A stretch of DNA of 64,000 nt from Eubacteriales bacterium (GTDB lineage Bacteria; Bacillota; Clostridia; Christensenellales; UBA1750), in the NCBI GenBank assembly GCA_031551255.1, contig JAVBNW010000045.1, positions 63,430 to 127,429 on the forward strand. The letters are read 5' to 3'. A model generated the notes under the pieces. It saw only the letters and a list, made by a program, of their open reading frames with translations. It did not search any database and was not told where the DNA came from. Shown here piece after piece: positions 2,187 through 64,000 of this stretch (within the stretch, counting starts at the first letter, position 1; every line of letters begins with the position of its first letter). The translations under genes were made by a program, and so were the position numbers.

Positions 2187-3293
2187 TTATCTCTTGAGCG
2201 CGAGTTCGTCCACCGAGCGTACGCTGCCTTCCGAGCGCGAGAGATACATGCACGCGACACAGCGCTCCGTAAGGCTTTTGAAGGTATCGCCGCTCCTGAG
2301 CGTCGCCGCTCCGACGCTCAGGGCGATGCGCCGGGGAATGCGGAAGGGATGCTCGGCGATAGCCTTGCGCAGGCGTTCCGCGAGTTCAACCGCTTCAAGA
2401 AGGCCTTCGCCGGGCAGAAGCACGCTGAATTCCTCGCCATCCAGCCTTGCAAACATAATGCCCTGCCCAACTACGCCGGAGAGCAGATGCGCGCACTCAA
2501 CCAATACGCTTTCCCCATGCACAAAGCCTTGCTCTACTTTGATCCCCTCGATGCCTTCCACGCTAAGTGCCAAAAGGGAGAGGGGGGCGCCGCTTTCTTG
2601 GGAGTGAGCGATGTGCGATATGATGCTTGCATCCAGCTGAAAGCGGCTGAATGCCCCGGTTAGCCTGTCGATTTGCGTAAGCTCTCTAAGCTCTCGCCTG
2701 CGCAGGTACTCGTTGCGGCGTTGGTATTGAACCCGATAGGTGCTGGCCGCGACAAATACATAGGCGACGCATAGATAGAAGGTGTTTCCGGCGATGTCTT
2801 TCGTTAGCGTGCCGTCCGCGCACATCAGCGACAGGCCGGCAAAGGATGCTATGGCCACGAGCGAGAGAAGAGCGCTGTTGATCCAGCGGTTGGGAATGTT
2901 AAGGATGGCGACCGCGATCAGCATGATGGCGACGACATGGTAGCCGTGGTGGTGGGGATGCATGTCGTAAATGATGAGAAGATACGCCGCGATCACCGTA
3001 AGCTCCGCCATGGAAACGAGAAGGAAGACCTCCAAGCCGGATTTTGTGCGCCATATGCCATAGGATGCCACCGCAACGGCCGCGACGATCGCACACCGAA
3101 AGGGAAGAGATAAAAGAAAGTGCGTGGGTTCGTGCCAATAATCGTACAGCGAAAGCGCAAAAAACACAAAGCCCGACATCACAATGCCCCAACGAAGGAA
3201 GCTGTGCGAGCGGCCGAATTCGGCGCGTCTGTATTCGCGCTCGACGGCCGCATCGCGAAACTCGCCGATTAGGTTGATATCTCTTGTCCACAT
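2187..3293 (-). CDS. Membrane-anchored GGDEF-domain protein with a degenerate active-site motif (DGEEF)
   Basis: 368-aa track ORF. The N-terminal half is hydrophobic with multiple TM segments. The C-terminus reads IDRLTGAFSRF...FARLDGEEFSVLLPG, so the first Gly of GG[DE]EF is replaced by Asp. Confidence 0.8.
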   Translation of the reverse strand: MWTRDINLIGEFRDAAVEREYRRAEFGRSHSFLRWGIVMSGFVFFALSLYDYWHEPTHFLLSLPFRCAIVAAVAVASYGIWRTKSGLEVFLLVSMAELTVIAAYLLIIYDMHPHHHGYHVVAIMLIAVAILNIPNRWINSALLSLVAIASFAGLSLMCADGTLTKDIAGNTFYLCVAYVFVAASTYRVQYQRRNEYLRRRELRELTQIDRLTGAFSRFQLDASIISHIAHSQESGAPLSLLALSVEGIEGIKVEQGFVHGESVLVECAHLLSGVVGQGIMFARLDGEEFSVLLPGEGLLEAVELAERLRKAIAEHPFRIPRRIALSVGAATLRSGDTFKSLTERCVACMYLSRSEGSVRSVDELALKR

Positions 3294-7151: not shown

Positions 7152-8066
7152 ATGGCGAACGCCAGGCTTACCGCGCTATGTCAGACGCCAGGGTGGCGGC
7201 TGGAGGACAACATCGCCCACGGCATCCGAAGCGGCTACGCATTCAACATTTCGGCGCCCTCTAATTTCGTGATTACAATGTTTCTGCCGGAAAGCTTTGA
7301 AGCCGGGCCGCTCGTCGGCGGCATGAAAAAGGCGAGGAAACAGCTTGGTATCGTAAATCTGGCAACCGGAAAGAAAGGCGTTTTGACGATTACGCTGCGC
7401 GCTGTGCGCGGCAACGCGCAGGCTGCCGCGGCGGCGCTGCTCCAGCGCGTCGACGGCATCGCGGGTTATCTTTACAATGCGGGCGTTCCGCACGATTGCT
7501 GCGCGCTGTGCGGCAAGGGAGAGGCTACCGGCGCGGTGCTTTTGCGCGGCAACCTCGTGCGCGCGCACACCGAGTGCGTTGAGCAAAAGCTTGCGCAGCA
7601 ACAGGAAAAAGAGATCGACCAAGGCCCTTCCCACCGCTACCTGCTCGGGTTCATCGGCGCGCTGCTGGGCGCGGCGGTCGGCGCAATTCCGTGGGTGGTG
7701 GTCAGCGTAATGGGTTTTGTGTCGGCATATCTCGCGGTGTTGATTGCGATTTGTGCGCACTTTGGCTATAAGCTCTTTACCGGCAAACGTTACGGGCCTT
7801 TTACGCGTCCGCTCGTGCTGCTGGCCTCCTTGGTTGGACTTGCGCTGTGCGTTGTATTAGAATTCGGGTTTTACTATGTTATGGAGATGGGCGCAGCGCC
7901 CGCTTCCGTGGCTGAGTTTGGGAGCTATCTGGAGTTCTACATCGCGGATGTTCTGATGCAGTGCATGTATACCGCCATCTTTGGCCTGTTGGGCATTGTT
8001 CTCTCGTGGAAAATGGTGCCCAAGAACCAGGAGATGGCCAGGGAATACCGCGAATATTCGATGTAA
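7152..8066 (+). CDS. Hypothetical membrane protein: N-terminal soluble domain with a Cys cluster, C-terminal multi-TM region
   Basis: 304-aa ORF. It contains CCALCGKGEATGAVLLRGNLVRAHTEC (zinc-ribbon-like) followed by at least 4 hydrophobic segments. I recognise no family. Confidence 0.6.
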   Translation: MANARLTALCQTPGWRLEDNIAHGIRSGYAFNISAPSNFVITMFLPESFEAGPLVGGMKKARKQLGIVNLATGKKGVLTITLRAVRGNAQAAAAALLQRVDGIAGYLYNAGVPHDCCALCGKGEATGAVLLRGNLVRAHTECVEQKLAQQQEKEIDQGPSHRYLLGFIGALLGAAVGAIPWVVVSVMGFVSAYLAVLIAICAHFGYKLFTGKRYGPFTRPLVLLASLVGLALCVVLEFGFYYVMEMGAAPASVAEFGSYLEFYIADVLMQCMYTAIFGLLGIVLSWKMVPKNQEMAREYREYSM

Positions 8067-8110
8067 ACTGGCATGGGCCGGGGGCAAAAGCTTCCGGCTT
8101 TTATCGTTAC

Positions 8111-8253
8111 CGACCCCCAAAACACGCAAGTCCAGCGACGGATCGGTTCCCCTCACTTTGTCAGGCTCAGTCGCCATAGCTATGGCTATGCCTCCTTCGC
8201 CTTCCTCGCGAGGAAAACCTCCTGTTCGCTGTCTTTTGAGCGTTTTGGGGTTC
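8111..8253. repeat. Imperfect ~18-bp inverted repeat (CCGAcCCCCAAAAC..GC / GC..GTTTTGGGGtTCGG) enclosing ~110 bp with internal palindromes
   Basis: The left arm lies around 8111-8128 and the right arm around 8236-8253. Internal perfect palindromes are GCCATAGCTATGGC and TTCCTCGCGAGGAA. The element occupies the gap between the 7152 gene and the next gene. Confidence 0.5.
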
Positions 8254-8282
8254 GGAGACTATATCATGAACGAGATGGGAGG

Positions 8283-9218
8283 GTGAGATCGTTGTACGAC
8301 TATGGCTTAACCCGGTTTGTCCGCGCGATCGAGGAGCGCAAGCTCAGCCTGTACGGCGCGCTGGTGCATCAGCACGGAAGGAATGTTGGAGAAGTCCACT
8401 GGGTGAACGACCAGCCGCAAAACCTATACTCGCTGTCAAAATCCTTTGCGTCCACGGCCATCGGCATCGCGGTAGAGGAGGGCCTGATCAAGCTGACCGA
8501 CCGCGCGGTGGATATTCTGGCCGCCGACGAGCCCAAGGAAGTATCCGAGCGCCTTTCCAAAATGACGCTTCACGATGTTTTGATCATGGCCGGCGGACAC
8601 GACCGCTCCTATCTCCTCGCGGCGGAGCGCGCACAGCTTCGGCGCAAGGATTGGGTGCGCTATTACCTTGAGCAGCCGATGGCCTTTGAGCCGGGCGAGC
8701 GGTTTGTGTACGACACGGGCAATACCTATCTGGCGTCGGCCATGCTTAAGGCCGTCGCCGGGGAGACGCTTCTCTCCTACGCGATGCCGCGCCTGTTTGA
8801 GCCGCTGGGCATCGCCCCGCCCAGGTGGGACGCCTGCCCGCGAGGCATAACGCTCGGCGGCGCGGGGCTATACCTCACTCTCCAAGATGTCGCGAAGCTG
8901 GGCCTTTTGTATTTGAACAAGGGCATGTGGAACGGCCGGCGCATCGTAAGCGAGGATTGGGTCAAGCGCGCGTCGCAAAAGCACATCGATACGTTTGACG
9001 GCCCGCCCGAGCACGACGGGCACTATGGCTATGGCTATCAGTTCTGGCGGGGCAACCACGGAACGTACCGCGGGGACGGCGCGTACGGCCAGTTTTGCAT
9101 CGTGTTGCCCGAGTGGGACGCGGTGGTGACGATCCACTCGCGCGAGTACTACAATATCATGGCCATTCTCCAGGCGGTGTGGGATACGATCCTGCCCGAT
9201 CTTCAGGATAATATGTAG
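8283..9218 (+). CDS. Beta-lactamase-fold serine hydrolase (class C / PBP4*-like)
   Basis: Track ORF 8073..9218, whose first ~70 codons run through the repeat element above. GGGAGGG precedes an in-frame GTG at 8283 (a TTG at 8292 is also possible). SxxK motif in LYSLSKSFASTAIGIAVEEG. Confidence 0.75.
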   Translation: MRSLYDYGLTRFVRAIEERKLSLYGALVHQHGRNVGEVHWVNDQPQNLYSLSKSFASTAIGIAVEEGLIKLTDRAVDILAADEPKEVSERLSKMTLHDVLIMAGGHDRSYLLAAERAQLRRKDWVRYYLEQPMAFEPGERFVYDTGNTYLASAMLKAVAGETLLSYAMPRLFEPLGIAPPRWDACPRGITLGGAGLYLTLQDVAKLGLLYLNKGMWNGRRIVSEDWVKRASQKHIDTFDGPPEHDGHYGYGYQFWRGNHGTYRGDGAYGQFCIVLPEWDAVVTIHSREYYNIMAILQAVWDTILPDLQDNM

Positions 9219-9246
9219 CTTCGTCGGTTTGCATTGCGCTCGATCG

Positions 9247-9420
9247 CCCATGGCATTGCGGTGTCATGGGCGATTGCCGCTTCGTGAAACATCCTCTTCC
9301 TAAATAAGCTGAGGCTTCTTTGGGATGGAGAAGAACGAAAAACGCGCGCATTCGTTTTCCGCCCCATCGTTCTCAGCCCCCAAAACCGCCGCGCCGATAC
9401 AGCGACGTACGAAGCAGTAA
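9247..9420 (+). repeat. Hairpin-repeat family copy directly 3' of the 9218 stop
   Basis: 9247-9270 is cccatggcat-TGCG-gtgtcatggg, 10 bp including 2 G-U-type pairs. 9291-9300 is aTCCTCTTCC, abutting 9301-9324 (taaataagc-TGAG-gcttctttggg). This is followed by gaagaacgaa...ttcgttttc arms. Confidence 0.7.
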
Positions 9421-11151: not shown

Positions 11152-11291
11152 TATATCCCCCCGCTAATATAAATACTCTGTAGCGCCAGTACTTATTTAA
11201 GTAAGAATATCATAGAAAGTCTCTCTGTTCAATCTGATATTTTGGTCCTATCTTGACACCAACACATTTCCTATGCTTGTTGCTCAATGAA

Positions 11292-11340
11292 TGCCAAGAG
11301 CGGGTAGTGTTTGCAAAGCAAACACTACCCGCTCTTGGCA
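11292..11340. repeat. Perfect 23-bp-stem / 3-nt-loop hairpin at the AT-rich/GC-rich boundary
   Basis: tgccaagagcgggtagtgtttgc-aaa-gcaaacactacccgctcttggca. There is no flanking T or A tract. Confidence 0.9.
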
Positions 11341-11445
11341 TGAGACATGACTTGATCATTGCCCTACAATCCACCTTACCGTACCCACGATCATGGGGAA
11401 GAGAATGACGAACGTGCACGCGCACCTTCCCTCGGCGTTCCAACT

Positions 11446-11554
11446 CCTCAAAAACGCCGCAGCGATTTTGAGGAAGAGGAGGGGCCACGGAGCAGACGTA
11501 CCCCCGCGACATCGCAATGTTGCGGGGGTACGAAGCGCAGTGCGCCCCGACGAG
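11446..11554. repeat. Hairpin-repeat family copy directly 3' of the asnS stop
   Basis: 11446-11473 is cctcaaaaacgc-CGCA-gcgattttgagg, followed by GGAAGAGGAG at 11472-11481. 11499-11530 is tacccccgcgacat-CGCA-atgttgcgggggta (14 bp). 11534-11554 is an exact inverted copy of the 21-nt box at 18908-18928. Confidence 0.8.
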
Positions 11555-11567
11555 TACCCCGACGGGT

Positions 11568-17699: not shown

Positions 17700-18030
17700 A
17701 GGCGTGCTGCAGACTGTCAAAAAAGCCTCGTGCCCTGCGTGATCTGGGAGGTTTGGAGGGCAGGGCGCTCCAAGTGCAATCGCCCGTCGGCGGCCGGAGC
17801 CGGGCGCGCGCAGTGCGCGATGAAGCCCGGCGGAAGGCCCGTAAAAACGGCAAAATGTGCGGCAAGCGCGCGGCTAAAATCGCGTTTTTGCTGACCGTGC
17901 GTCGTATGTTCCTCGTCGTGCTTCCTCGGCGGGGGGCTCACGGGGGGGGTACGCGTACCACCCGTGCCGTGAAACGGCGTGCCGCCAGATCATAAAAGCG
18001 CCGCAGCACTTTTTTGACAGGTTGTGCGCG
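17700..18030. repeat. ORF-free GC-rich hairpin-dense spacer directly 3' of the 18031 stop (degenerate members of the repeat family)
   Basis: Examples are 17994-18013 (aaaagcgc-CGCA-gcactttt), gccgt-gaa-acggc, the palindrome GGTACGCGTACC, and a G8 run. The track ORFs here are Arg-rich artefacts. Confidence 0.45.
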
Positions 18031-18867: not shown

Positions 18868-19229
18868 AACACATCACATCCTCATCGTCGCGGACTTCGT
18901 ATCGCTCCTCGTCGGGGCGCACTGCGCTCCTCCTCTTCCTCAAAACCGCTGAGGCGATTTTACGGAGTGGCAAGCTGCGACGAAGAAAGAAACGGGGCAA
19001 CTCGTCGTCGCGGACTGCGCATCGCCCCCCTCTTCCTTCGAATCGCTGTGGCGTTTTGAAGGAGTACGTCGCGTCGGGGCAAAAAACGGGAGCGCGCGCT
19101 CCTCATCCCTCTTACTCCCACTCCCAAAGAAACCTCAGTTTCTTTGGGAAGAGGAGATTCCACGGAGCGGACATTCCCATATGGCATCGCAATGCCGTAT
19201 GGGAATAAAGCACAGTGCGAATCGACGAG
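18868..19229. repeat. Array of the modular hairpin-repeat family
   Basis: CTCCTCTTCC at 18930-39 abuts the hairpin at 18938-65 (loop TGAG). Other hairpins: 19027-63 (loop TGTG), 19123-48 (cccaaagaaac-CTCA-gtttctttggg, followed by GGAAGAGGAG at 19147-56), and 19176-19203 (cccatatggcat-CGCA-atgccgtatggg). The boxes TCGTCGCGGACTKCGYATCGC (twice) and CTCGTCGGGGCGCACTGCGCT (18908-28) are also present. Confidence 0.85.
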
Positions 19230-19490
19230 TTAGATGCCTAGCGCATCCGAGATCGCTTCGGCAATTGCCGCAATCGCCGCGTCTTCGTCTTTGCCGTCGG
19301 CCGTCAAACGCACGGTGCTGGAAATCTCTCCTAGCGATACCATGCCCATTACGGATTTTGCGTTGACCGTTTTACTGCCAATGTTAATGAGCACGCTCGC
19401 GCCATACTTGGTCGCGATGCGCACGATTCCGCTCGCCGCCTGCGCCGATATGCGCCCGCCCCTTCCGACGGGTAGTTCCTTAGTGGTCAT
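19230..19490 (-). CDS. HPr-like phosphocarrier-fold protein of the Crh type (Ser-46 motif present, His-15 absent)
   Basis: 86-aa ORF: ...GRGGRISAQAASGIV...GSKTVNAKSVMGMVSLG.... An ATGA start/stop overlap joins it to whiA. The Bacillus yvcJ-yvcK-whiA-crh operon is the model for this arrangement. Confidence 0.8.
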   Translation of the reverse strand: MTTKELPVGRGGRISAQAASGIVRIATKYGASVLINIGSKTVNAKSVMGMVSLGEISSTVRLTADGKDEDAAIAAIAEAISDALGI

Positions 19491-23661: not shown

Positions 23662-24387
23662 CGGCGGTCCCCCCCATCCATCGTATGGAAAAAGACCGCG
23701 GGTTATGTTCCGCGGCTCAGCGCGATGACAAACTGCGGTTTGTCATTGCGACATGCAAGTGCTTGAGGTGGCTCATGCATGCCGGATGGATTGGAAACAG
23801 CGGAGGATGAAGCAATCCGGCATCGCGCAAGACGGCGCTTCGGAAAAGTCTCTCGCTTACGCTCACCACGTCTTGCGTCATTTTCGACCGGACTTGCATA
23901 CCGGCCGGCATGAGCCTGCGGCCGTACAACCTTGCAGTTCGCAAGTACCCGTGGCAATCTTCTAACGCAGATTGCCACGGGTCGCTACTCCACCCCACCA
24001 AACCTTCGGTTTGTCGAGGACCCCGGCTGGCTTTGCGCCGTGCTGATTTGCGCCTTTGGCGCGCACGGCTCCGGCCGCCCTCCGGCTCTTTTTATGCGAA
24101 GGCCCGACACCAAGCCCGTGCAGTGCACGCAAGCAGCCAGGGGCAGAGCCGGTGAGCGACCTGCGGTAGCCGACTTTGAGAGGCTGGCACAGGTATCCGC
24201 CAACTGAGGCAGGCCCCGCGCCCCGGGAAGAACCGCATAATGCAGAACCTCTTCCGTTTCCTGAACCTTTCTTTTTCTTTGTTTACTTTCTCATCAGCCT
24301 GGGCCGCGGTTTTATGGATTTATGGCGGGTATCGCCGAAGGGGATATTACGATATGCGCTCTAAATTGCCCCTCAGCAGCCTCTCAT
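23662..24387. other. 726-bp ORF-free, hairpin-dense spacer
   Basis: Hairpins: 23721-50 (13-bp stem, loop TGCG); 23826-34 paired with 23869-77 (cgcaagacg/cgtcttgcg, 34-nt loop); 23947-82 (acccgtggcaatct...agattgccacgggt, 14 bp). All track ORFs here are short and low-complexity. Confidence 0.7.
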
Positions 24388-34085: not shown

Positions 34086-34416
34086 CGTGTAATCTTCCTT
34101 TCCGTCGTGAGTGCGCGCCTGAACAACATTGCCGTTTTCGGCGACCGCAGCCTTTTCAGGCGTTTTGTGCTGGCTACGCTTATTAAACGTGCGCGCGGAA
34201 AGAAAGTTATGCACGTTTTGTGAAGAAATTGTGGCAGAGTATGAAGCAATGTGATGTCTTAAGTGCGACTAAAAATGATGCGGAGCCTCCGCTGCCCTGA
34301 GTGCGCCGCACCGCGGGTTTTACTTCTTTGCATCCGCCGCGAACCACTTATACCTTCCATACATAGGATGCACTATGCCCGATTCTATCCGGGCGGATGC
34401 AAAGGAGGAAGCAGAT

Positions 34417-35523
34417 TTGCCATATCCATTTCATCGCTGTAATTGCCGCGGAACGTGCTCCTGCGGCGGAGGAACCACCATCGTCGGGGTACCCGGCCCT
34501 GTCGGCGCTACCGGCCCGGCCGGCCTGCCCGGCGCAACGGGAGCTACCGGCCCCGTGGCATTTAACGAAGTAGTGTTGTTTGATCCGCTGCTCGCGCCGA
34601 ATTATTTGCGCGGGCAGATTGTCATTCACAACGGCAGCGCATATGTCGTATTGACTTCGCCGCCGGTCGGCATTCCCGGCTCTTCATCGTCGTATGAGCT
34701 GATCCACATCAACGGCGGCATCACCGGAGCCACCGGGGCTACGGGCGTGGGTGCAACCGGCGCTGCGGGTACAACCGGCGCAACAGGCCCCACCGGCGCT
34801 ACGGGCGTCGGCATCACCGGACCTACCGGGCTTACCGGGCCCGCCGGCCCTATCGGAGCTACCGGGGCAACCGGCGCTACCGGCCCTGCCGGGGCGAATG
34901 GTTTGAGCGTTACCGGCCCCACAGGCGCAACCGGGCCCACGGGTGCGGCGGGAGTCGCCGGTTCCGTAGGCGCCACAGGCCCCATAGGCCCCACGGGCGC
35001 TGCAGGGGCCACTGGTCCTACGGGCGCAACCGGAGCGGACGGCCTGAGCGTTACCGGGCCTACCGGAGCCACCGGCCCCACAGGCGCTACGGGCGCCACC
35101 GGCCCGGCCGGCGGCGGATCGCTTAGCAACACGGCCTTCGCTGCGGCGGTTAGCGGCCCCTCAATCCCTGTGCTGTTGGGCGGAGCAGCCATCGCGCTGC
35201 CCGATGCGCAGGTGCTCCCTGCGGGCATCACCATCAACGCCGCCAACACGGTCTTTACCGTGAACACGGCGGGCGTCTATCGCATCACCTACTTTATCAA
35301 CACCGCGGTCTCGCTGTTGCTGGGCACGCGCCTTGTGGTCAATGGCGCTGCGGTTCCAGCTTCCAACATCACACCGGTGGTCACGCACACGCGCTTTGCC
35401 GCCGAAATTGTGTTGCCGCTTGCCGCCGGCAGTACGGTGGCGCTGGAGTTCTACGGCCTCATCGGGCTTGCGACTCTCGTCGAGGGCGCGGGCGCGCTTC
35501 TGACGATTTCCCAGGTGGCGTAA
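34417..35523 (+). CDS. Collagen-like (G-x-T repeat) protein with a BclA-type C-terminal globular domain; probable spore-surface/exosporium glycoprotein
   Basis: Track ORF starts at 34375. AAGGAGGAA, 6 nt and an in-frame TTG at 34417. The product has the Cys-rich N-terminus [18 protein letters not shown], two GxY runs, and a C-terminal ~130-aa beta-rich domain (...[18 protein letters not shown]...STVALEFYG...). Confidence 0.8.
34486..35118 (+). repeat. Triplet-periodic collagen-like coding repeats (GGN-NNN-ACN), interrupted at 34555-34716
   Basis: [20 protein letters not shown], then about 45 consecutive G-x-y triplets, mostly GAT/GPT. The antisense 213-aa ORF (PVAPV-rich) is an artefact of these repeats. 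Confidence 0.9.
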
Positions 35524-35567: not shown

Positions 35568-35731
35568 ATAGTCGCCGGCCCTGAAAATCCGAACACCTGA
35601 GCGGCCCTTTTTCCGCCCCGCATTGTCTGCGTCGGTCGACGTGGCTGCCGGCCACGCCTCCCTCCGTCTCCGCGCGGAGGCAAAAACAGTGCTCGCTCAT
35701 TTTGTTCGGATTTTCAGGGCCGGTGACTATA
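35567..35731. repeat. 165-bp element bounded by 29-bp terminal inverted repeats (28/29 match)
   Basis: The left arm at 35567-35595 is TATAGTCGCCGGCCCTGAAAATCCGAACA. The right arm at 35703-35731 is TGTTCGGATTTTCAGGGCCGGTGACTATA. The 107-bp core contains the small hairpins gtggc-tgccg-gccac and cctccg...cggagg. Confidence 0.9.
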
Positions 35732-38597: not shown

Positions 38598-38856
38598 CGG
38601 GCGTGCCGGATTATCCGGACAGGCTGTGCGTTGGGTCTAAAAATGACGATACTACTTATGTGCGAGTTTGGCGCGAACCCGGTGCGCCGGGCGCTTTTCC
38701 GGCGGTTTCTCCATGCGGTGGGCGGGAGGCGGTTTCAACTCGCAAATTCTATTAGCGGCCGGCGCTGCCCGCGGCAGGATCTGTCCGGGGCCGGTTTGCC
38801 GCCGCTGGGCGCGGGTAGATACAAGTACGGATGCTTTGCGGAAGAAAGGTGATCCG

Positions 38857-40266
38857 ATGCGCAGGCCACAAGCGGCGAAGAGTGAAGTGCAGGCAAAGGA
38901 TTTTATCCTAGAGGTTCTTGGAAATCTGCTCAGCCATGGCGCCGGAGACGAGGCGATTCCTCTCGTGCTCCGCAAGATCTGCGCCTATTTTTCGTTTGGA
39001 TGTGCGTTTGTATATGAGTGCGACCACACCAAGGCGTTTTTTCTGAAGGAGCATTGCCAGGCGTATCCTCACGATTTGCCCGCCTCTTTCCGCCTGGAGA
39101 ACGCATTGGGCGAAGAGGGGGTTCGCCAGCTCAGCTCCGCGCCGGTCATCTGCGTCAGCCGCGAGATCGAGGTAAGCGAGGTGGGCGCAAAGCTTGCCAA
39201 ATTATTCGCCGGCAACACGCTTTTGCTGGTGCCCGTCGCAGATGCCGACGGCTCGGCGATCGGCTGCGTCGGCATTGCGGACAGGCGTGCGGATATTCTC
39301 ATCGAAGAGGCGGATATAGCCCTGGCACGCACGCTGTTTGAGGTCGTAGCCAGCCGTATAGCCCAGCGCATCTATCGGCAAAGGCTTCATTTTACCCAGA
39401 TGTCGCTCGAGGGCATCATGGATAACACCGGCATCGATATCTATGTAAACGACTTTGATACCCACGAAATCCTCTACGTAAACAGATCCATGGCGGCGCC
39501 CTATGGCGGCATACAAAACATGATGGGAAGGCTTTGCTGGGAAGCGCTGTACGAAGGCAAAACCGGCGAATGCGACTATTGCCCCAAGCACAGGCTCTTG
39601 GATGAGCAGGGCAACCCCACCAAGACATATTCGTGGGACTACCAGCGCCCCTTTGACGGCGCGTGGTTTCGGGTGATCAGCGCGGCCTTCCGCTGGGTGG
39701 ATGGACGTATCGCCCACGTGATCAGCAGCGTGGACATTACCGAAAACAAGCGCAACGAGGCTTTGGTAAAGCGCATGGCGTTTTACGATACTCTCACAGG
39801 CATCCCCAACCGGCGCAAGCTGGAAAGCGATTTTGCGCAGTTCATCACGGGCAGCGGCGGGGCCCAGCCTGCGACGCTGATGTTCTTGGACCTGGACGAT
39901 TTTAAGGCGATCAACGATACGTTTAGCCACGCCGTCGGGGATGAGCTCCTTACCAAGGTAGCTTCGTTTCTCCAGGAAGAATCCACGGCGAAGGGGCATG
40001 CCTACCGGCATGGGGGAGACGAGTTCATCCTGTTCCTGCCCGGCGGTGCGTGGGATATCGCCGAGACGACCGCGCATCTGCTCGATGCTTTCTCGCGGGG
40101 CTGGGAGATTTCCGGCCGTCTGGTATACTGCCGCGCCAGCATCGGCATCGCCCAATACCCCCGCGACGGCGTAACCTACCAAGCGCTGCTCGATAGCGCC
40201 GATCACGCGATGTATACTGCGAAGAGAGATGGAAAGGACAGGGCGGCGTTTTCTAAGGATGTATAA
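38857..40266 (+). CDS. Diguanylate cyclase with N-terminal GAF-like and PAS domains (GGDEF intact)
   Basis: Track ORF starts at 38668. ATG at 38857 follows GAAAGGTGA. Sequence: ...YDTLTGIPNRRKL...DLDDFKAINDTFSHAVGDELL...YRHGGDEFILFL. Confidence 0.88.
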   Translation: MRRPQAAKSEVQAKDFILEVLGNLLSHGAGDEAIPLVLRKICAYFSFGCAFVYECDHTKAFFLKEHCQAYPHDLPASFRLENALGEEGVRQLSSAPVICVSREIEVSEVGAKLAKLFAGNTLLLVPVADADGSAIGCVGIADRRADILIEEADIALARTLFEVVASRIAQRIYRQRLHFTQMSLEGIMDNTGIDIYVNDFDTHEILYVNRSMAAPYGGIQNMMGRLCWEALYEGKTGECDYCPKHRLLDEQGNPTKTYSWDYQRPFDGAWFRVISAAFRWVDGRIAHVISSVDITENKRNEALVKRMAFYDTLTGIPNRRKLESDFAQFITGSGGAQPATLMFLDLDDFKAINDTFSHAVGDELLTKVASFLQEESTAKGHAYRHGGDEFILFLPGGAWDIAETTAHLLDAFSRGWEISGRLVYCRASIGIAQYPRDGVTYQALLDSADHAMYTAKRDGKDRAAFSKDV

Positions 40267-47249: not shown

Positions 47250-47829
47250 GGAGGAAAGGTTACATTTCGTCGTCGCGGACTGCGTATTGCTCGCTTCCAC
47301 ACTGCGGTGTGAAAGCTCGTTCACTGCGTCGCTCCTCCTCTTCCATAAAACCGCTGCGGCGGTTTTATGGATTAAGGACGACGAAGAAGGCACGGAGCTC
47401 ACGCTTTTCGTTCTTCTTTCCCCCACAAGACGCCTTAGCGTCTTGTGGAAGAGGAGGGGCCTCGTTGTCGCGGATTGCGTATCGCTCGCGTCGTCGGTTT
47501 GCACTACGCTCTAGTCCCGCAAAACACTGCGGCGTTTAACGGGAATTGGCGCTCCGTGGAATCTCCTCTTCCTCAAAACCGCTGAGGCAATTTTGAGGGT
47601 TAAGAAGAACGAGGGGTAAAGAACAAAAGCTCGCGCTCCCCGTTCCTCCATAAAGAGCACTGCGGCGCTTTTATGGGTTGGGAACGACGAAGAGAATGCG
47701 GGGCGCGCGTTCTTCGTTCTTCTAAACCCCAAAGAAACCTCAGTTTCTTTGGGAAGCGGAGGTTTCACGTAGCGCCAATTGCCCGCAGTACCGCGGTGCG
47801 CGGGGAATAGGGCGTAGTGCAAACCTCCG
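47250..47829. repeat. Largest array of the modular hairpin-repeat family (at least 7 hairpins)
   Basis: Hairpins at 47298-311, 47343-70 (perfect 12 bp, loop TGCG), 47423-48 (perfect 11 bp, loop CTTA), 47516-43, 47571-98 (loop TGAG), 47648-76, and 47728-53 (perfect 11 bp, loop CTCA). CTCCTCTTCC is at 47335-44 and 47563-72, and GGAAGAGGAG at 47447-56. The box TCGTYGTCGCGGAYTGCGTATYGCTCGC is at 47267-93 and 47462-89. Confidence 0.88.
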
Positions 47830-48876
47830 CTATTCGGCCAGGGCGCCGACAAACCAGTGGATTCTGACGAGCTTGTCGCTCTTCGCATCAAAGAAAAATG
47901 AACAGCACGCGTGCTGTCGATAGTAATAGGCGCCGCTGTCAAGGTCCGCATCGTCGCAGGGCTCTACGGGCGCGATCAGGCGCAGCACGTAAGCGCCGTT
48001 TTCGTTCACATCCCGCGATAGTTCGGCCATCGGAGGAAACATACGCCCGTCGGGCCAGATATCGGCGTACAGGGTGGCGGTATCCGCGCCCGAAAGTCGA
48101 TCGTCGGCCTCGTTCGCCGCTTCGTTCGCTTCGTCGATGGAGGAGTCGCGATCAGGCAGCTTTACGCGGAATTTTTTCAGCACCTCCTCAAGCGACGCGC
48201 CCACGCGCAGGCCGCGCGGGCCGGGCCAGTCTTTGGAAGTAACCGTCATGCCGGTGAGACTATTTCCGCCTACAAACTCGGCATACAGCCCGTCGTATGC
48301 GAGCGTCGTAACCTTAAGGCCGGTCAGCTCTTCCGTATGATCTTCGCGCATCGGCGGCTCGCCCAGTTCCCCTATGACCTCCTCCACGCCCGAGCGGGCT
48401 CGGATGCCCATCATGCGAAGATCGCCGGGGACAAATGCCCCAAAGGGTGGCACGTAGCGCGGCGTCGGCTCGGGTTCGGCCAGGGTTTCCACGATTACGG
48501 GCTCCAGCGTGGGTTCCGGCGTAAGCTCCGGGGTGGGGCGGCGCGTGATCAGCGCGGGCCTTGCGCCCGCATGCTCCGCGGAACGCGGCAAGGGCGGCTT
48601 GATCGCGCAGCCGCCCAACAAGCACAGCGCCATAAGCGCTGCGATTGCCCTATATCGGTTCCCCTCGGGGGTTTTTGTGCCGCCTCCCGCAAGCTCTTCG
48701 GCCGGATGATTTTCCGCTATGCCGCGTCGGTTTCGGCCTTGCGCAGTCCTGCCGCGCGATGGTCTCTCCGCCTTGGCAGGCAAAAAAATCTCTTGGCCGG
48801 GCATCATGCGAGGGTTGCCCAAGAAGCCCAATGCCTTTGTAGGATCCCTCATCAGCGCATCCTTTGTATATATCAT
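47830..48876 (-). CDS. Hypothetical membrane-anchored/lipoprotein-like protein with Pro/Glu/Thr-rich linker
   Basis: 348-aa ORF. It has a hydrophobic segment plus a lipobox-like AALMALCLLGGCAIKP about 75 aa from the annotated start, so the start is uncertain (alternative ATG at 48852). The linker is TPELTPEPTLEPVIVETLAEPEPTP. Confidence 0.6.
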   Translation of the reverse strand: MIYTKDALMRDPTKALGFLGNPRMMPGQEIFLPAKAERPSRGRTAQGRNRRGIAENHPAEELAGGGTKTPEGNRYRAIAALMALCLLGGCAIKPPLPRSAEHAGARPALITRRPTPELTPEPTLEPVIVETLAEPEPTPRYVPPFGAFVPGDLRMMGIRARSGVEEVIGELGEPPMREDHTEELTGLKVTTLAYDGLYAEFVGGNSLTGMTVTSKDWPGPRGLRVGASLEEVLKKFRVKLPDRDSSIDEANEAANEADDRLSGADTATLYADIWPDGRMFPPMAELSRDVNENGAYVLRLIAPVEPCDDADLDSGAYYYRQHACCSFFFDAKSDKLVRIHWFVGALAE

Positions 48877-52452: not shown

Positions 52453-52476
52453 CACGGGGGGACGCGTCCCCCCGTG
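52453..52476. repeat. Perfect 24-nt GC-rich palindrome
   Basis: cacggggggacgcgtccccccgtg. It lies within a ~380-bp ORF-free GC-rich spacer (52433-52817). Confidence 0.85.
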
Positions 52477-52817
52477 AGCCCTCCGCCGAAGAGGCGCGAC
52501 GAAGGTTACGACGAGCGGCCGATACGCCGGGTGGCTGGAGTTACCCGTTACGAGGCGATGCGAGCGCGCCGAGCGCGCAAAAGCGACGATCGATCTTATC
52601 GCTCAGCGCGTTCTCAAAGCTCACATCGGGGGCCTCCGGCATCGGCTGCCGTCGGCATTCGCGAACCGCAAGAGCGTACGGCCATAGGCCCACGCAGGGC
52701 GCGCGCATAAACCGCGTTAAGAACCTGCATTCCGCTGCGACGCGTCACAGTGCGTCAACCTGCTGAGCTAAAAGCCGTATGTTGTGCTTATACTATATGA
52801 AAATGCTCATCACAATC

Positions 52818-54030: not shown

Positions 54031-55224
54031 TTAAAGATTGCGAAACACCAACTTGTTGCGGCCACCGTCTTTGGCGGCATAGAGCGCTTCATCCGCTTGC
54101 CGGATCATCGCCTGCGCATCGCTGTCCTGAGCGGGCACGGCGCTAAAGCCGCCGATGGAAACCGTTACGACCGGCGCTGCGCGCGAGCCGGAATGCGGCA
54201 TTTGCAGGTTTTCGACGGAGTCCTTGACGCGCATGAGCAATTGCCGGTCTTTTTCCGCGTCTTCGCCGCGCAAGAGGATGATAAACTCTTCGCCACCAAA
54301 GCGCGCGAGGGTGTCGTTGGCTCTGCGCAACTCGCTGCGCATCGCGTCGGCCACTTTGCGAAGGCATACGTCTCCCTCCTGGTGGCCGTAAATGTCGTTA
54401 TATTGCTTGAAGTCGTCCACGTCCGCGATGGCGATGGTCAGCCGTTGGCCGTCCCGGCACGCGCGCCTCCATTCGGCGTCGACGGTTTCGTCGAAGCGGC
54501 GGCGGTTCATCAGAAAGGTAAGGGGATCGGTAACGGAAAGTTCGGCAAGTTCCGTATTCAGCTTGCTCAGCTGGTTATTTTTCTCTTGAATGGTGCGGTT
54601 GGCGAGAAACTGCCGGTAGGCGCCCGCGTATACCACGCGCGATACCACCCAAGCGAGCAGCGCGTTGATGGTGGTGTTGATGAAGGTGCCGCTGTACGCG
54701 CCCGCGTCGGGATAGAGAAGATATATTCCCACGACAACGACTATCTGCGCGGCGAAAAGCATAGCAAGGGACGCATACGGAGGGATGAGGAAGACCACCA
54801 TGAGCAAATATTGCATCGCGATAAGCACGATGCCCTGTTCATTGCCGGAGGTAAGATCCGTCAGCGTGACGACGGCCGCCCAAAGAAGAGCCAGCGTCGT
54901 ACCCAGCGGCGCGATGATCCCCGCCCACAAAAGGCCGCTTTCCGTATCGGCGGCGTAGGAACGGTAGAAAAGCAAGCCTACGGCCATCATAAGCGCCATG
55001 ATCAGGTACAGCGAAGCGTAGTATTTTGCGTGCTCGCCGGCGACGCCCGTAGCGATGCGGACTACCGAGCGCATCAGCATGGCAAGCTCCACAAGCAGCG
55101 TCGTGATTGCCACGGCGCGCACCCTGGTCATATTCTGCCGGGTGACGATTTGGCCGAATGGCGTTTTATGCTCGGGATCTACCACGACAAACAGCTGCAA
55201 GATCATATCGCGCAATGTCATCAT
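54031..55224 (-). CDS. Membrane-bound diguanylate cyclase (GGEEF)
   Basis: 397-aa ORF with a multi-TM N-terminus, then DPLTFLMNRRRF...DVDDFKQYNDIYGHQEGDVCL...ARFGGEEFIILL. Confidence 0.88.
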   Translation of the reverse strand: MMTLRDMILQLFVVVDPEHKTPFGQIVTRQNMTRVRAVAITTLLVELAMLMRSVVRIATGVAGEHAKYYASLYLIMALMMAVGLLFYRSYAADTESGLLWAGIIAPLGTTLALLWAAVVTLTDLTSGNEQGIVLIAMQYLLMVVFLIPPYASLAMLFAAQIVVVVGIYLLYPDAGAYSGTFINTTINALLAWVVSRVVYAGAYRQFLANRTIQEKNNQLSKLNTELAELSVTDPLTFLMNRRRFDETVDAEWRRACRDGQRLTIAIADVDDFKQYNDIYGHQEGDVCLRKVADAMRSELRRANDTLARFGGEEFIILLRGEDAEKDRQLLMRVKDSVENLQMPHSGSRAAPVVTVSIGGFSAVPAQDSDAQAMIRQADEALYAAKDGGRNKLVFRNL

Positions 55225-61904: not shown

Positions 61905-61951
61905 GCTACAAATAAATATAATACGTAATATGTATTATATTTATTTGTAGC
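61905..61951. terminator. Perfect 20-bp AT-rich hairpin downstream of hcp (possible terminator)
   Basis: gctacaaataaatataatac-gtaatat-gtattatatttatttgtagc, followed by gttt. Confidence 0.5.
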
Positions 61952-62489: not shown

Positions 62490-64000
62490 TTACACCGAGG
62501 CGACGATGTGATCGCCCATACTGAAAATTTTTTTTTCGAACTCACCGCTGGCAAGAGGCTGGGAAAACAGATAGCCCTGCATCAAATCGGCATCGAGCGA
62601 CATAATCACCGAGCATTGTCCGACGGTCTCAACCCCTTCTACACACACCAGATGGCCGATGGAGTGCGCAAGGCGAATGATGGAAGAGAGAAATTGTCTG
62701 CCCTCCGGATCGGTTTCAATATCCCGTACAAAAGAGCGGTCGATCTTCGTTTCGGTGATGGGCAGCTCGCGCAGATAGCTAAGCGAAGAGTATCCGGTTC
62801 CAAAGTCGTCGATCGCAATGCCTACTCCCTCGCCCATCAGCTGCCCAAGCGCATGTACATCGCCCTGCATTTCCATCACACACGAGCCCTCGGTAATCTC
62901 CAGCGTAATATTGCCGGGTTTGAGCCTATAGTGATGCACGAGCGCGAGCACCTCTTCCGTAAGCGTGTGGCGGGTAATCTGGGGAGGAGTAAGGTTGATG
63001 TTCATAATAAAGTTTTCTCCGGCGCCTTTGTCGATCCAGGCGCGGCATTGTTTTACGGCCGCGTGCAGAATCCAGCCCTCTACGGCAGGCATCAACCCTG
63101 CCGCCTCCAAGCAGGGTAAGATTTCCGCGGGCGGCACGAGCCTTCCATCCGGATCGCGCCAGCGAATCAGCGCCTCCGCGCCGAGGCAAGCGCCATCCAT
63201 GGCGGAAATGAGCGGCTGATAGTATAGTTCAAATCCGTCGAATTTATGTTCTACCGCATGGCGCAACCGGTTTTCAAGCTCAATCTTTTGCAGATAGTCT
63301 TCGCGATCTGAAGGATCAAACGTGGCAAAGCCGTCTTTGCCTTGATACTTGACCCGGTGCATGGTGATTTCGGCATCGGTAAGCAGTTCATCCACGCCCT
63401 GTCCTTCGCGGTACTCCACGGCGCCCATGGAAAAAGTGATGTAGATTTCCTTGCCGCCGATGTCGATGGTTTTGCGCCACTTATCGCGCAATGAAGCCAT
63501 CCACTCAAGCGTGGCATCGCCACTCAAAGCGGAAAGGTCGGCGACGAACAGATCGCCCCCCATATGGTACAGCATGCTTCCCTTGGGCAAATCCATTAAA
63601 AGCCCGCTGCCGAAACGCTTGAGCACTTCGTCGCCCACGGCATGCCCGTACATGTTGTTGATGCTCTTAAAGTCATCCAGATCGATCATAACGATATGGC
63701 CCTCGTTCGGCTCTTCTCTAAGCCGCCTCCCCTGATCGCGATAGAACGATATGCGGTTGGGAAGCTGTGTGACACGATCGGTTAGCGATTGCTCTTCCAG
63801 ATAGGTGTTGTATTGCCCCATCGCTTCGATGTTGAAAATGGAACCCGCCATTAGTGTGGGTTCTTGGTTGTCGTCAAAGGATGCCTTGCCGCGCCAGGCC
63901 GTCCAAACCGGGGCCCCATCCGGCCCGATTAAGCGAATTTCCAACGCGTATTCATCGGTTTTTGCAGAATAGATGGCTGCCAAGGCGTCGGAAAACCGAT
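62490..64000 (-). CDS. PAS-GGDEF(degenerate)-EAL c-di-GMP phosphodiesterase; 5' end beyond the right edge
   Basis: Track ORF 62490..63983 stays open in frame to nt 64000. The GGDEF site is degenerate (HMGGDLFVADL). The EAL domain looks intact (GAEALIRW, DDFGTGYSSL). Confidence 0.88.
   Translation of the reverse strand, partial: RFSDALAAIYSAKTDEYALEIRLIGPDGAPVWTAWRGKASFDDNQEPTLMAGSIFNIEAMGQYNTYLEEQSLTDRVTQLPNRISFYRDQGRRLREEPNEGHIVMIDLDDFKSINNMYGHAVGDEVLKRFGSGLLMDLPKGSMLYHMGGDLFVADLSALSGDATLEWMASLRDKWRKTIDIGGKEIYITFSMGAVEYREGQGVDELLTDAEITMHRVKYQGKDGFATFDPSDREDYLQKIELENRLRHAVEHKFDGFELYYQPLISAMDGACLGAEALIRWRDPDGRLVPPAEILPCLEAAGLMPAVEGWILHAAVKQCRAWIDKGAGENFIMNINLTPPQITRHTLTEEVLALVHHYRLKPGNITLEITEGSCVMEMQGDVHALGQLMGEGVGIAIDDFGTGYSSLSYLRELPITETKIDRSFVRDIETDPEGRQFLSSIIRLAHSIGHLVCVEGVETVGQCSVIMSLDADLMQGYLFSQPLASGEFEKKIFSMGDHIVASV

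Follow-up and report, generated by a model that had tools for sequence, protein, structure and literature searches.

Small interspersed repeats of bacteria are known mostly from Proteobacteria and from a few pathogens. Gram-positive bacteria also carry CU-rich multi-copy small RNAs (e.g. the LhrC family), in which sibling copies, sometimes arranged in tandem, place stable hairpins beside exposed C/U-rich stretches complementary to the Shine-Dalgarno sequence. For the repeats themselves, REP doublets are described as forming a replicative unit (PMC3116915), and the properties of REPINs and of RAYTs have been reported (PMC3116915, PMC3479197). E. coli REPs stall ribosomes when they lie no more than 15 nt from a stop codon (reviewed in PMC12306157). 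BOX elements are co-transcribed with their neighbours and likely affect expression; they are probably parasitic, with a slow gain of new insertions (PMC3049150). Bacterial MITEs have been covered in several reviews (PMC3184786, PMC2229807, PMC10969869).

The locus investigated here is the 362-nt spacer between a PTS-HPr gene and an alpha/beta hydrolase gene, at positions 18868-19229 of a 64,000-nt stretch of DNA that was analysed as a whole (the window). The genome has a GC content of ~58%, and the nearest named relatives of the AsnS encoded in the window belong to Candidatus Spyradocola / Christensenellales (72-73% identity). In exact look-ups, every protein of the window came out as an unnamed singleton. 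The flanking genes agree with the preliminary description of the locus, which had called them HPr-like and hydrolase. The spacer belongs to a previously undescribed repeat family, which is a relative of the small intergenic repeats and not a new kind of system.

Composite elements in the window

In every gene-proximal copy the repeat unit is laid out, in the sense of the upstream gene, as stop codon, box B, hairpin hp2, a linker and hairpin hp1. Box B consists of C[T/C]TCGTCG, 4-5 variable bases, GCAC and TGCGCT, and the linker between hp2 and hp1 reads GCTCCGTGG-NNN-CTCCTCTTCC. In terms of structure, the ~110-nt unit comprises the 5′ box (CGTCG...), a long-range helix (P1) formed around hp2, the single-stranded CU-rich CTCCTCT and hp1; it is followed by a purine-rich/GC hairpin module (module 3) and then by an inverted, often truncated second unit. 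A variant unit begins with a different 5′ end, box A, and is complete at 47265-47372. The modules distinguished in the preliminary description are parts of this ordered unit, not free-floating boxes. The copy in the HPr-hydrolase spacer, element E3, is composed as follows:

19121..19230, minus strand: full unit, the gene-proximal arm, directly after the HPr stop (covariance model and MFE fold)
19209-19229, minus strand: box B of the full unit
19215-19223 pairing with 19156-19163, minus strand: P1 of the full unit
19172-19207, minus strand: hp2 of the full unit
19150-19155, minus strand: single-stranded UCCUCU of the full unit
19122-19149, minus strand: hp1 of the full unit
19064..19120, minus strand: module 3, a purine-rich stretch and the GC hairpin GGAGCGCGCGCTCC (19089-19102), then CGTTTTTTG on the minus strand
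19003..19063, plus strand: inverted truncated unit with box A (19005-19025), CCCCCTCTTCC and an hp1-type hairpin (19034-19063)
18967..19002, plus strand: left-arm spacer rich in purines (GACGAAGAAAGAAACGGGG), similar to module 3 in alignment
18907..18966, plus strand: left-arm unit with box B (18908-18928), CCTCCTCTTCC (18929-18939) and hp1 (18938-18966)
18885..18905, plus strand: box A remnant, the box-B-like 5′ end of a box-A-type unit, colinear with 47465-47485

A covariance model was built from six units and used to search the window with filters off. The full unit of E3 was the top match (116.7 bits, E 3e-23), followed within the spacer by the left-arm unit (40.7 bits, E 5e-7) and the inverted truncated unit at 19003..19063 (25.5 bits, E 9e-4), the latter being recovered also by a box A search and an inverted-repeat scan. 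The left-arm unit lacks hp2 and the 3′ strand of P1, which a pairwise alignment to the unit behind asnS revealed to be a clean 62-nt deletion, and module 3 of E3 aligns colinearly with its counterparts in the four remaining elements of the window. The preliminary description had counted four hairpins in the gap, and these are found at 18938-18966, 19034-19063, 19122-19149 and 19172-19207; a fifth, terminator-like hairpin lies at 19089-19102 and is followed by a T-run on the minus strand. Folded alone, the full unit gives the three helices as its MFE structure (-49.1 kcal/mol, z -7.1), and a single fold spans the complete 365-nt E3 (-171 kcal/mol, z -8.7).

Each motif of the preliminary description was searched over the window with shuffled controls, and the exact matches it had reported are real and far above chance. 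The 29-mer CCCAAAGAAACCTCAGTTTCTTTGGGAAG is present at 19123-19151 and 47728-47756 (0.00 expected in shuffles), and the similarity does continue past it, to a total of 56 nt at 86%. The 21-mer CTCGTCGGGGCGCACTGCGCT is found at 18908-18928 on the plus strand and at 11534-11554 on the minus strand (0.02 expected), the latter copy sitting 13 nt from the asnS stop. The motif TCGTCGCGGACTKCGYATCGC, said to occur twice in each of two arrays, is exact at both sites in the 18.9-kb gap (18885 and 19005) and only approximate in the 47-kb array (47270 and 47465, with 1 and 2 mismatches, respectively); within 3 mismatches, it has four matches in the window against 0.01 expected.

The other elements of the window are the following, all five being colinear in a gene-sense alignment:

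9219..9415, plus strand: E1, a full unit (9219-9326), module 3 and a degenerate inverted part ending CGACGTACGAAG
11380..11555, minus strand: E2, a full unit (11445-11555), then module 3
47265..47460, plus strand: E4, a box-A-type full unit (47265-47372, plus strand), module 3, and an inverted hp1 with GGAAGAGGAGG
47456..47832, minus strand: E5, colinear homologue of the entire 18.9-kb array
47726-47832, minus strand: full unit of E5, abutting or overlapping the stop of gene 47830..48876
Other parts of E5: module 3; central hairpin at 47646-47676; full inverted unit at 47489-47599 (plus strand); box A at 47465-47485

The full unit of E1 (103.8 bits) begins at the base after the TAG of a beta-lactamase-like gene (8073..9218), and that of E2 (114.7 bits) starts 13 nt after the asnS stop; a recognisable second terminus was not found in E2. 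E4 gave two matches of 61.9 and 28.1 bits, and its partial unit is reported by the model as 47421-47537 on the minus strand, thus extending past 47460 into E5. With E-values down to 1e-19 to 1e-23, the census of the window amounts to six full and three partial units, all located in four of the ~36 intergenic regions (9.2, 11.5, 18.9-19.2 and 47.27-47.83 kb). Each of the five foldback elements combines a unit, module 3 (purine-rich, with a GC hairpin and a pyrimidine-rich tail) and an inverted second unit, often cut down to hp1 plus GGAAGAGG, and this REPIN-like layout of sense unit, module 3 and inverted unit is present in all five. The gene-proximal units are all in the sense orientation, 0, 0, 0 and 13 nt after stop codons. 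Units antisense to local genes are the inverted arms of E3, E4 and E5, together with a whole array in the assembly CAJKEB01 (see below).

The 18.9-kb array is, as proposed before, a second array of the same family, being colinear with the right half of the 47-kb array. When 18880-19232 was aligned to 47460-47832, 239 of 315 aligned columns were identical (76%), end to end, with a score of 294.5 compared to 125 +/- 8 for shuffles (~21 sd) and 110-137 when seven further intergenic regions were aligned in either orientation. The layouts differ only by one 62-nt deletion (hp2 and linker of the left unit) and one box-A insertion. As E3 and E5 align colinearly over their whole length, the entire composite element was copied once and then diverged, and the earlier suggestion that sub-modules had spread rather than arisen by one duplication is for the most part not supported; the 29-mer is the best-kept hairpin of the composite element. 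A degree of mosaicism does exist: module-by-module identities give different nearest neighbours for different modules, and the left-arm box B of E3 is identical to the asnS copy and differs from its colinear partner in E5. The 21-mer in common with the asnS copy falls inside a 74-column alignment of 85% identity, and a conversion patch or recombination between copies is plausible from these comparisons.

Several further features of the window were recorded. A GC-rich intergenic repeat set occurs downstream of the hydrolase gene and at two other loci (17782-17839 similar to 24029-24086, 17913-17947 to 52468-52502, and 17991-18014 to 47652-47675); it includes an hp1-like hairpin and a weak model match at 17921-18018 (E 0.09), possibly a decayed element. 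Between E2 and a HAD-hydrolase gene lies a perfect palindrome (11291-11341; arms of 24 nt, loop of 3 nt), which has no T-run and falls outside the repeat family, and an AT-rich palindrome with 23-nt arms (61905-61951) is located just after a prismane/hybrid-cluster protein gene. Two inverted-repeat pairs have a common TATAGTC..CCG core: one (35567-35595/35703-35731) straddles the start of a glycosyltransferase gene at 35623, the other (6945-6967/8242-8264) brackets gene 7152..8066, and both could represent operator sites or a further family of small repeats. The largest "repeat families" of the repeat scan reflect the GXY triplet periodicity of a BclA-type gene (34375-35523, repeats 34496-35113), which encodes a collagen-like protein with a BclA C-terminal domain of the exosporium type. 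Four GGDEF or GGDEF-EAL proteins are also encoded in the window (2187-3293, 38668-40266, 54031-55224 and 62490-63983).

Fold of the unit

RNAalifold applied to the six full units recovered P1, hp2 and hp1, with the variable bases of box B pairing with the variable bases of the linker. P1 comprises 5 + 3 bp with one bulged base and encloses hp2; six or seven unpaired bases (UCCUCU) separate it from hp1, the base of which takes in the last TCC of the conserved motif. Examples of P1 pairings in the window are GATTC.CAC/GTGGAATC, GGGGC.CAC/GTGGCCCC, GGTTT.CAC/GTGAAACC and GGATT.CCC/GGGAATCC, and those in other genomes are GCAGC.CAC/GTGGCTGC and GCAAA.CCC/GGGTTTGC. In an alignment of 13 units, which was fitted to the model and therefore flatters the pairing figures, 91.6% of cells were paired, compared to 68.1% when shuffled and 37-47% when the partners were slid; double changes were seen in 30 of 36 pairs, all three helices covary, and P1 itself was 95% paired with compensatory changes in 6 of its 8 pairs. 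Units folded singly gave a common MFE architecture, with z <= -4 in 7 of 8.

The motifs that are conserved are CGTCG, TGCGCT, GCTCCG and CTCCTCT, while the stems vary; in other words, the most conserved parts of the unit are single-stranded and the helices covary. Copies diverge by 25-50%, and nearly all of them still fold. The specific fold of the single strand is maintained while the sequence drifts. The tetraloops UGCG, UGAG and UAAG are preserved relative to the orientation of the unit that contains them; as this includes the units antisense to genes, they are uninformative on transcripts. Counts of G-U versus A-C mismatches (21 vs 15) likewise pick out no strand. A general pairing between the CU-rich stretch and the purine-rich module 3 was rejected, as it holds only in E3.

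Distribution, insertion and transcriptional context

An exact linker was found in only 2 of ~185,000 species-representative genomes, both of them MAGs. One, JAISEO01 ("Coriobacteriales bacterium Gx485_bin20", ~60% GC), contains five linker matches, all of them immediately behind the CCA of tRNA genes (Ala, Lys, Arg and Phe), and the covariance model adds a unit after tRNA-Ser. The distance from the CCA to the unit is 0-3 nt at these five different tRNA genes. Units at tRNA-Ala are repeated in tandem every 127 nt. The other, CAJKEB01 ("uncultured Clostridiales", 45% GC), contains one full unit and, behind it, a tandem series of short 65-nt units made up of CCACTACTCCGGGTTTGCTCCTCTTCC and a hairpin, in an array antisense to both flanking genes. 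The coordinates are:

L002:6880-7325, L006:2439-2562, L007:6808-6932, L008:5168-5291 and 1355-1465: units of JAISEO01
L005:3449-3740 (contig shared with L013): array of CAJKEB01

The family is present in three assemblies besides that of the window, and its motifs are constant in four lineages, which range from 45 to 63% GC and include one with a Coriobacteriales label. By tblastx, the MAG loci had no genes in common with the window. Searches of the window against Rfam 15 gave zero matches at the gathering score, and at E <= 1-10 both arrays, together with the loci L006 and L016, gave only chance-level matches of microRNA type. No match to the array was obtained by blastn in plasmid and phage collections, the linker pattern had 0 matches in viral contigs, and in JGI metagenome contigs it yielded only chance matches in coding sequence and an already known contig. 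A tRNA scan of the window found none.

A comparison with related genomes shows the element to be an insertion, with presence and absence at orthologous sites. In GCA_003324335.1 (contig QMCE01017846, locus L016), the order RapZ-WhiA-HPr-hydrolase is the same and the HPr-hydrolase spacer measures 42 nt, compared to 362 nt in the window; the two hydrolases are 59% identical. This relative instead has a complete unit with its own P1, hp2 and hp1 sequences 54 nt past the stop of the hydrolase gene, where the window has no intact unit. Four relatives (L017-L020, one being the GCA_003324335.1 assembly; AsnS 79-80% identical) have no unit after asnS, and none follows the stop of the one relative (45%) that an orthologue search for gene 47830..48876 brought up. 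These empty sites come from distant relatives (59-80% protein identity) and not from sister strains. In the GCA_003324335.1 locus, a long hairpin was also seen upstream of rapZ (L016:195-282), which may be another repeat and gives only chance matches of microRNA-precursor type in Rfam.

Three short-read contigs of SRR23967709 (Logan; L001, L015 and L022), 100% identical to the window, end inside modules of the family, that of L022 within the shared 29-mer. Breaks of de Bruijn assembly contigs inside the modules are the behaviour expected of a multi-copy repeat, the copy number of which is here extrapolated from the 64-kb window. Pfam searches of ~50 ORFs of the window and 10 ORFs beside the MAG arrays gave no transposase, integrase or reverse transcriptase: the element is without a gene of its own and non-autonomous. 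No direct repeat flanks E1, E3 or E5, i.e. no target-site duplication was found, which is a weak negative given that the exact ends are uncertain, and no transposition intermediate was found. The flanks differ between copies (TAA, TAG, GTA, CCA, GGGC); an attC-type site, a fixed target of the IS200/IS605 kind and a TA target were each considered, and the flanks give them no support.

In a terminator scan, only module 3 of E3 qualified (19102->19080, with the T-run on the minus strand), and it looks like an intrinsic terminator from its sequence. Module 3 of E4 and of E5 gave a weak terminator signal, and no terminator was found near E1 or E2. A role of hp1 or hp2 as terminator was rejected, as neither has a T-run. 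A promoter-like site for the next gene is present beyond the 47-kb array. Since 362 nt and a terminator-like hairpin lie between genes that are adjacent in the relative, E3 probably uncouples expression of the hydrolase from the murB-rapZ-whiA-HPr operon.

Origin of the repeats and relation to known systems

Our preferred reading, to which we assign a probability of roughly 60%, is that the HPr-hydrolase spacer is a copy of a non-autonomous, structure-dependent interspersed repeat of ~200-370 bp, of the REP/BIME/BOX/MITE kind. On this reading the 110-nt unit must fold as a single strand, with P1 around hp2, an exposed CU-rich stretch and hp1, and a second, inverted unit beyond a spacer module would complete a foldback like that of REPIN, BIME or BOX. 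New copies would arise rarely, by duplicative insertion into DNA just 3′ of genes, and the insertion would depend on an enzyme acting in trans, which recognises the strand in its folded form together with the constant CGTCG, TGCGCT, GCTCCG and CTCCTCT, as RAYTs do with REPs and integrases with attC. Later deletions, truncations and possibly conversion between copies would have produced what the preliminary description perceived as modules. The gene-proximal unit would be transcribed as a 3′ UTR between stop codon and terminator-like hairpin, where its stable helices could present a barrier to 3′-exonucleases and protect the 3′ end of the mRNA; by analogy with the REPs of E. coli, a unit at the stop codon could also affect termination. 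Some of the observations fit this reading less readily. Selfish DNA in decay would not be expected to leave divergent copies that still fold, unless numerous young subfamilies are present beyond the window; if the diverged units have young, near-identical siblings elsewhere, selection in situ need not be invoked. For a MITE it is unusual that motifs stay constant over four lineages differing this much in GC (45-63%), and the intact folds, the shared motifs, the strictly sense orientation at the ends of genes and tRNAs and the exposed anti-Shine-Dalgarno-like stretch fit a selected RNA function at least as well.

The unit might accordingly be primarily a functional RNA, either a 3′ UTR or tRNA-trailer module or a source of sibling small RNAs cut from such regions, in which variable scaffold helices display the unpaired, anti-Shine-Dalgarno-like CUCCUCU for binding to ribosome-binding sites or to a protein, and which became multiple by duplication of a useful module instead of by selfish spread. 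That helices covary around conserved single-stranded parts speaks for it, as do the sense orientation of all gene-proximal units at 0-13 nt after stops, their placement 0-3 nt after the CCA of five tRNA genes in JAISEO01, the motifs kept in four lineages and the folds that stay intact at 25-50% divergence. We nevertheless consider it unlikely, since positions differ between relatives, units also lie antisense to neighbouring genes (in E3, E4 and E5 as inverted arms, in CAJKEB01 as an entire array), the count of G-U against A-C mismatches chooses no strand and no Rfam family matches. A more far-reaching form is similarly doubtful: a new class of structured RNA in the 3′ UTRs and tRNA trailers of several Clostridia and a Coriobacteriales-labelled MAG, with two covarying scaffolds (P1/hp2 and hp1) that would display an invariant, unpaired CUCCUCU seed and so allow the multi-copy RNA to regulate, or act as a decoy for, ribosome-binding sites or a conserved RNA-binding protein, or else a mobile element that targets exact gene 3′ ends (stop codon, tRNA CCA) by an RNA-linked mechanism.

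Other explanations stay with mobility. The inverted doublets split by a spacer, the extragenic location near stop codons, and a recognition by fold and not by sequence, as expected where a single strand is recognised, would all suit a true REP/REPIN system, in which a REP-associated tyrosine (IS200/IS605-type Y1) transposase from a single gene elsewhere in the genome would act on the units; that no transposase lies nearby is typical where a single RAYT serves the genome. A three-helix unit of 110 nt is, however, far from a 20-40-nt palindrome with a conserved 5′ tetranucleotide, and stems that vary are the reverse of what REPs display, which makes full membership decidedly improbable. We give very little weight to a classical MITE of the cut-and-paste type, for which box B and its inverted counterpart would serve as terminal inverted repeats, with a DDE transposase and possibly a TA target. 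E3 and E5 do end in inverted copies of box B (18908/19229 and 47496/47825), the two ends of E1 still read CTTCGTCG ... CGACGTACGAAG although the element has an internal deletion, and TA adjoins CGTCG ends at three places (GTA-CTCGTCG at 11557, GTA-CGTCG at 19064 and CGACG-TA-CGAAG at 9404-9415, hyphens marking the boundaries), but a consistent target-site duplication is missing among flanks as different as TAA, TAG, GTA, CCA and GGGC, E2 has no recognisable second terminus, and DDE transposition does not require covariation inside the arms. Finally, hairpins are common after genes and one of the modules is terminator-like, which could have pointed to unrelated terminators with chance matches, or to an assembly artefact. 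This has next to no probability and is refuted by exact 29-mer and 21-mer matches where ~0 are expected, a colinear alignment ~21 sd above shuffles, covariance-model E-values of 1e-19 to 1e-23, the presence of the family in three other assemblies, and independent contigs that are identical to the window up to the repeats.

The family of interspersed repeats is well defined and statistically supported, and it comes from uncultured, Christensenellales-like Clostridia of gut or digester. In these organisms the repeat breaks short-read assemblies, and it can split operons, as between HPr and hydrolase. A covarying three-helix unit with conserved single-stranded motifs is an architecture not described for REP, BOX or MITEs. 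The covariance model could be used for a census of the family and for finding a mobilising enzyme or binding partner; if the RNA reading were true, the unit would represent a new multi-copy regulatory RNA.

Compared to the REP, BIME and REPIN repeats of Enterobacteria and Pseudomonas, which are mobilised by RAYTs whose gene resides in the same genome and mostly has REPs on its flanks, the family is likewise extragenic, multi-copy and hairpin-forming without encoding a gene (PMC3116915, PMC12306157), and it has in common with them the inverted doublets, the mosaic arrays and the frequent position right behind stop codons in 3′ UTRs. It differs in its 110-nt unit with a long-range helix and two hairpins, where a REP is an imperfect palindrome of ~20-40 nt, in having hypervariable stems and conserved single-stranded linkers, the reverse of REPs, and in the absence of a GTAG-type 5′ motif and of any sequence similarity. 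With the BOX elements of Streptococcus pneumoniae (boxA-boxB(n)-boxC), the family shares a Gram-positive host, modularity, a variable number of sub-modules and extensive secondary structure (PMC3049150), whereas, judged by its description, the module grammar differs and no sequence relation is apparent; BOX is moreover limited to a narrow group of species, while motifs of the present family occur in four lineages, with GC contents of 45-63%.

Bacterial MITEs such as Correia/NEMIS and ERIC, which have long terminal inverted repeats, resemble the elements in their size of 100-400 bp, foldback structure, terminal inverted boxes and internal-deletion derivatives, but here no target-site duplication was found, the arms have their own covarying three-helix fold and the orientation beside gene ends is strictly sense. 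Integron attC sites similarly lie directly behind stop codons and conserve a single-strand fold rather than a sequence. The units described here instead have housekeeping neighbours (asnS, the HPr operon, an ECF transporter), no integrase and no R/L-box consensus; their P1 sequences vary freely (GATTC, GGGGC, GGTTT, GCAGC, GCAAA), without a match to the GTTRRRY core, and the covarying helix sequences differ from the attC core sites. Small RNAs of the LhrC type are alike in their sibling copies, in hairpins flanking an exposed CU-rich stretch and in an arrangement that is at times tandem, whereas the present units occur in both orientations, have no sequence similarity to them and are not known to have a promoter or a discrete transcript. 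The family works like REP/BIME/REPIN, BOX and foldback MITEs (PMC3116915, PMC3049150, PMC3184786) but fails membership in each by the defining features, and it is distinguished by features of its own: the three-helix unit, variable helices combined with constant linkers, and placement at stop codons and tRNA ends.
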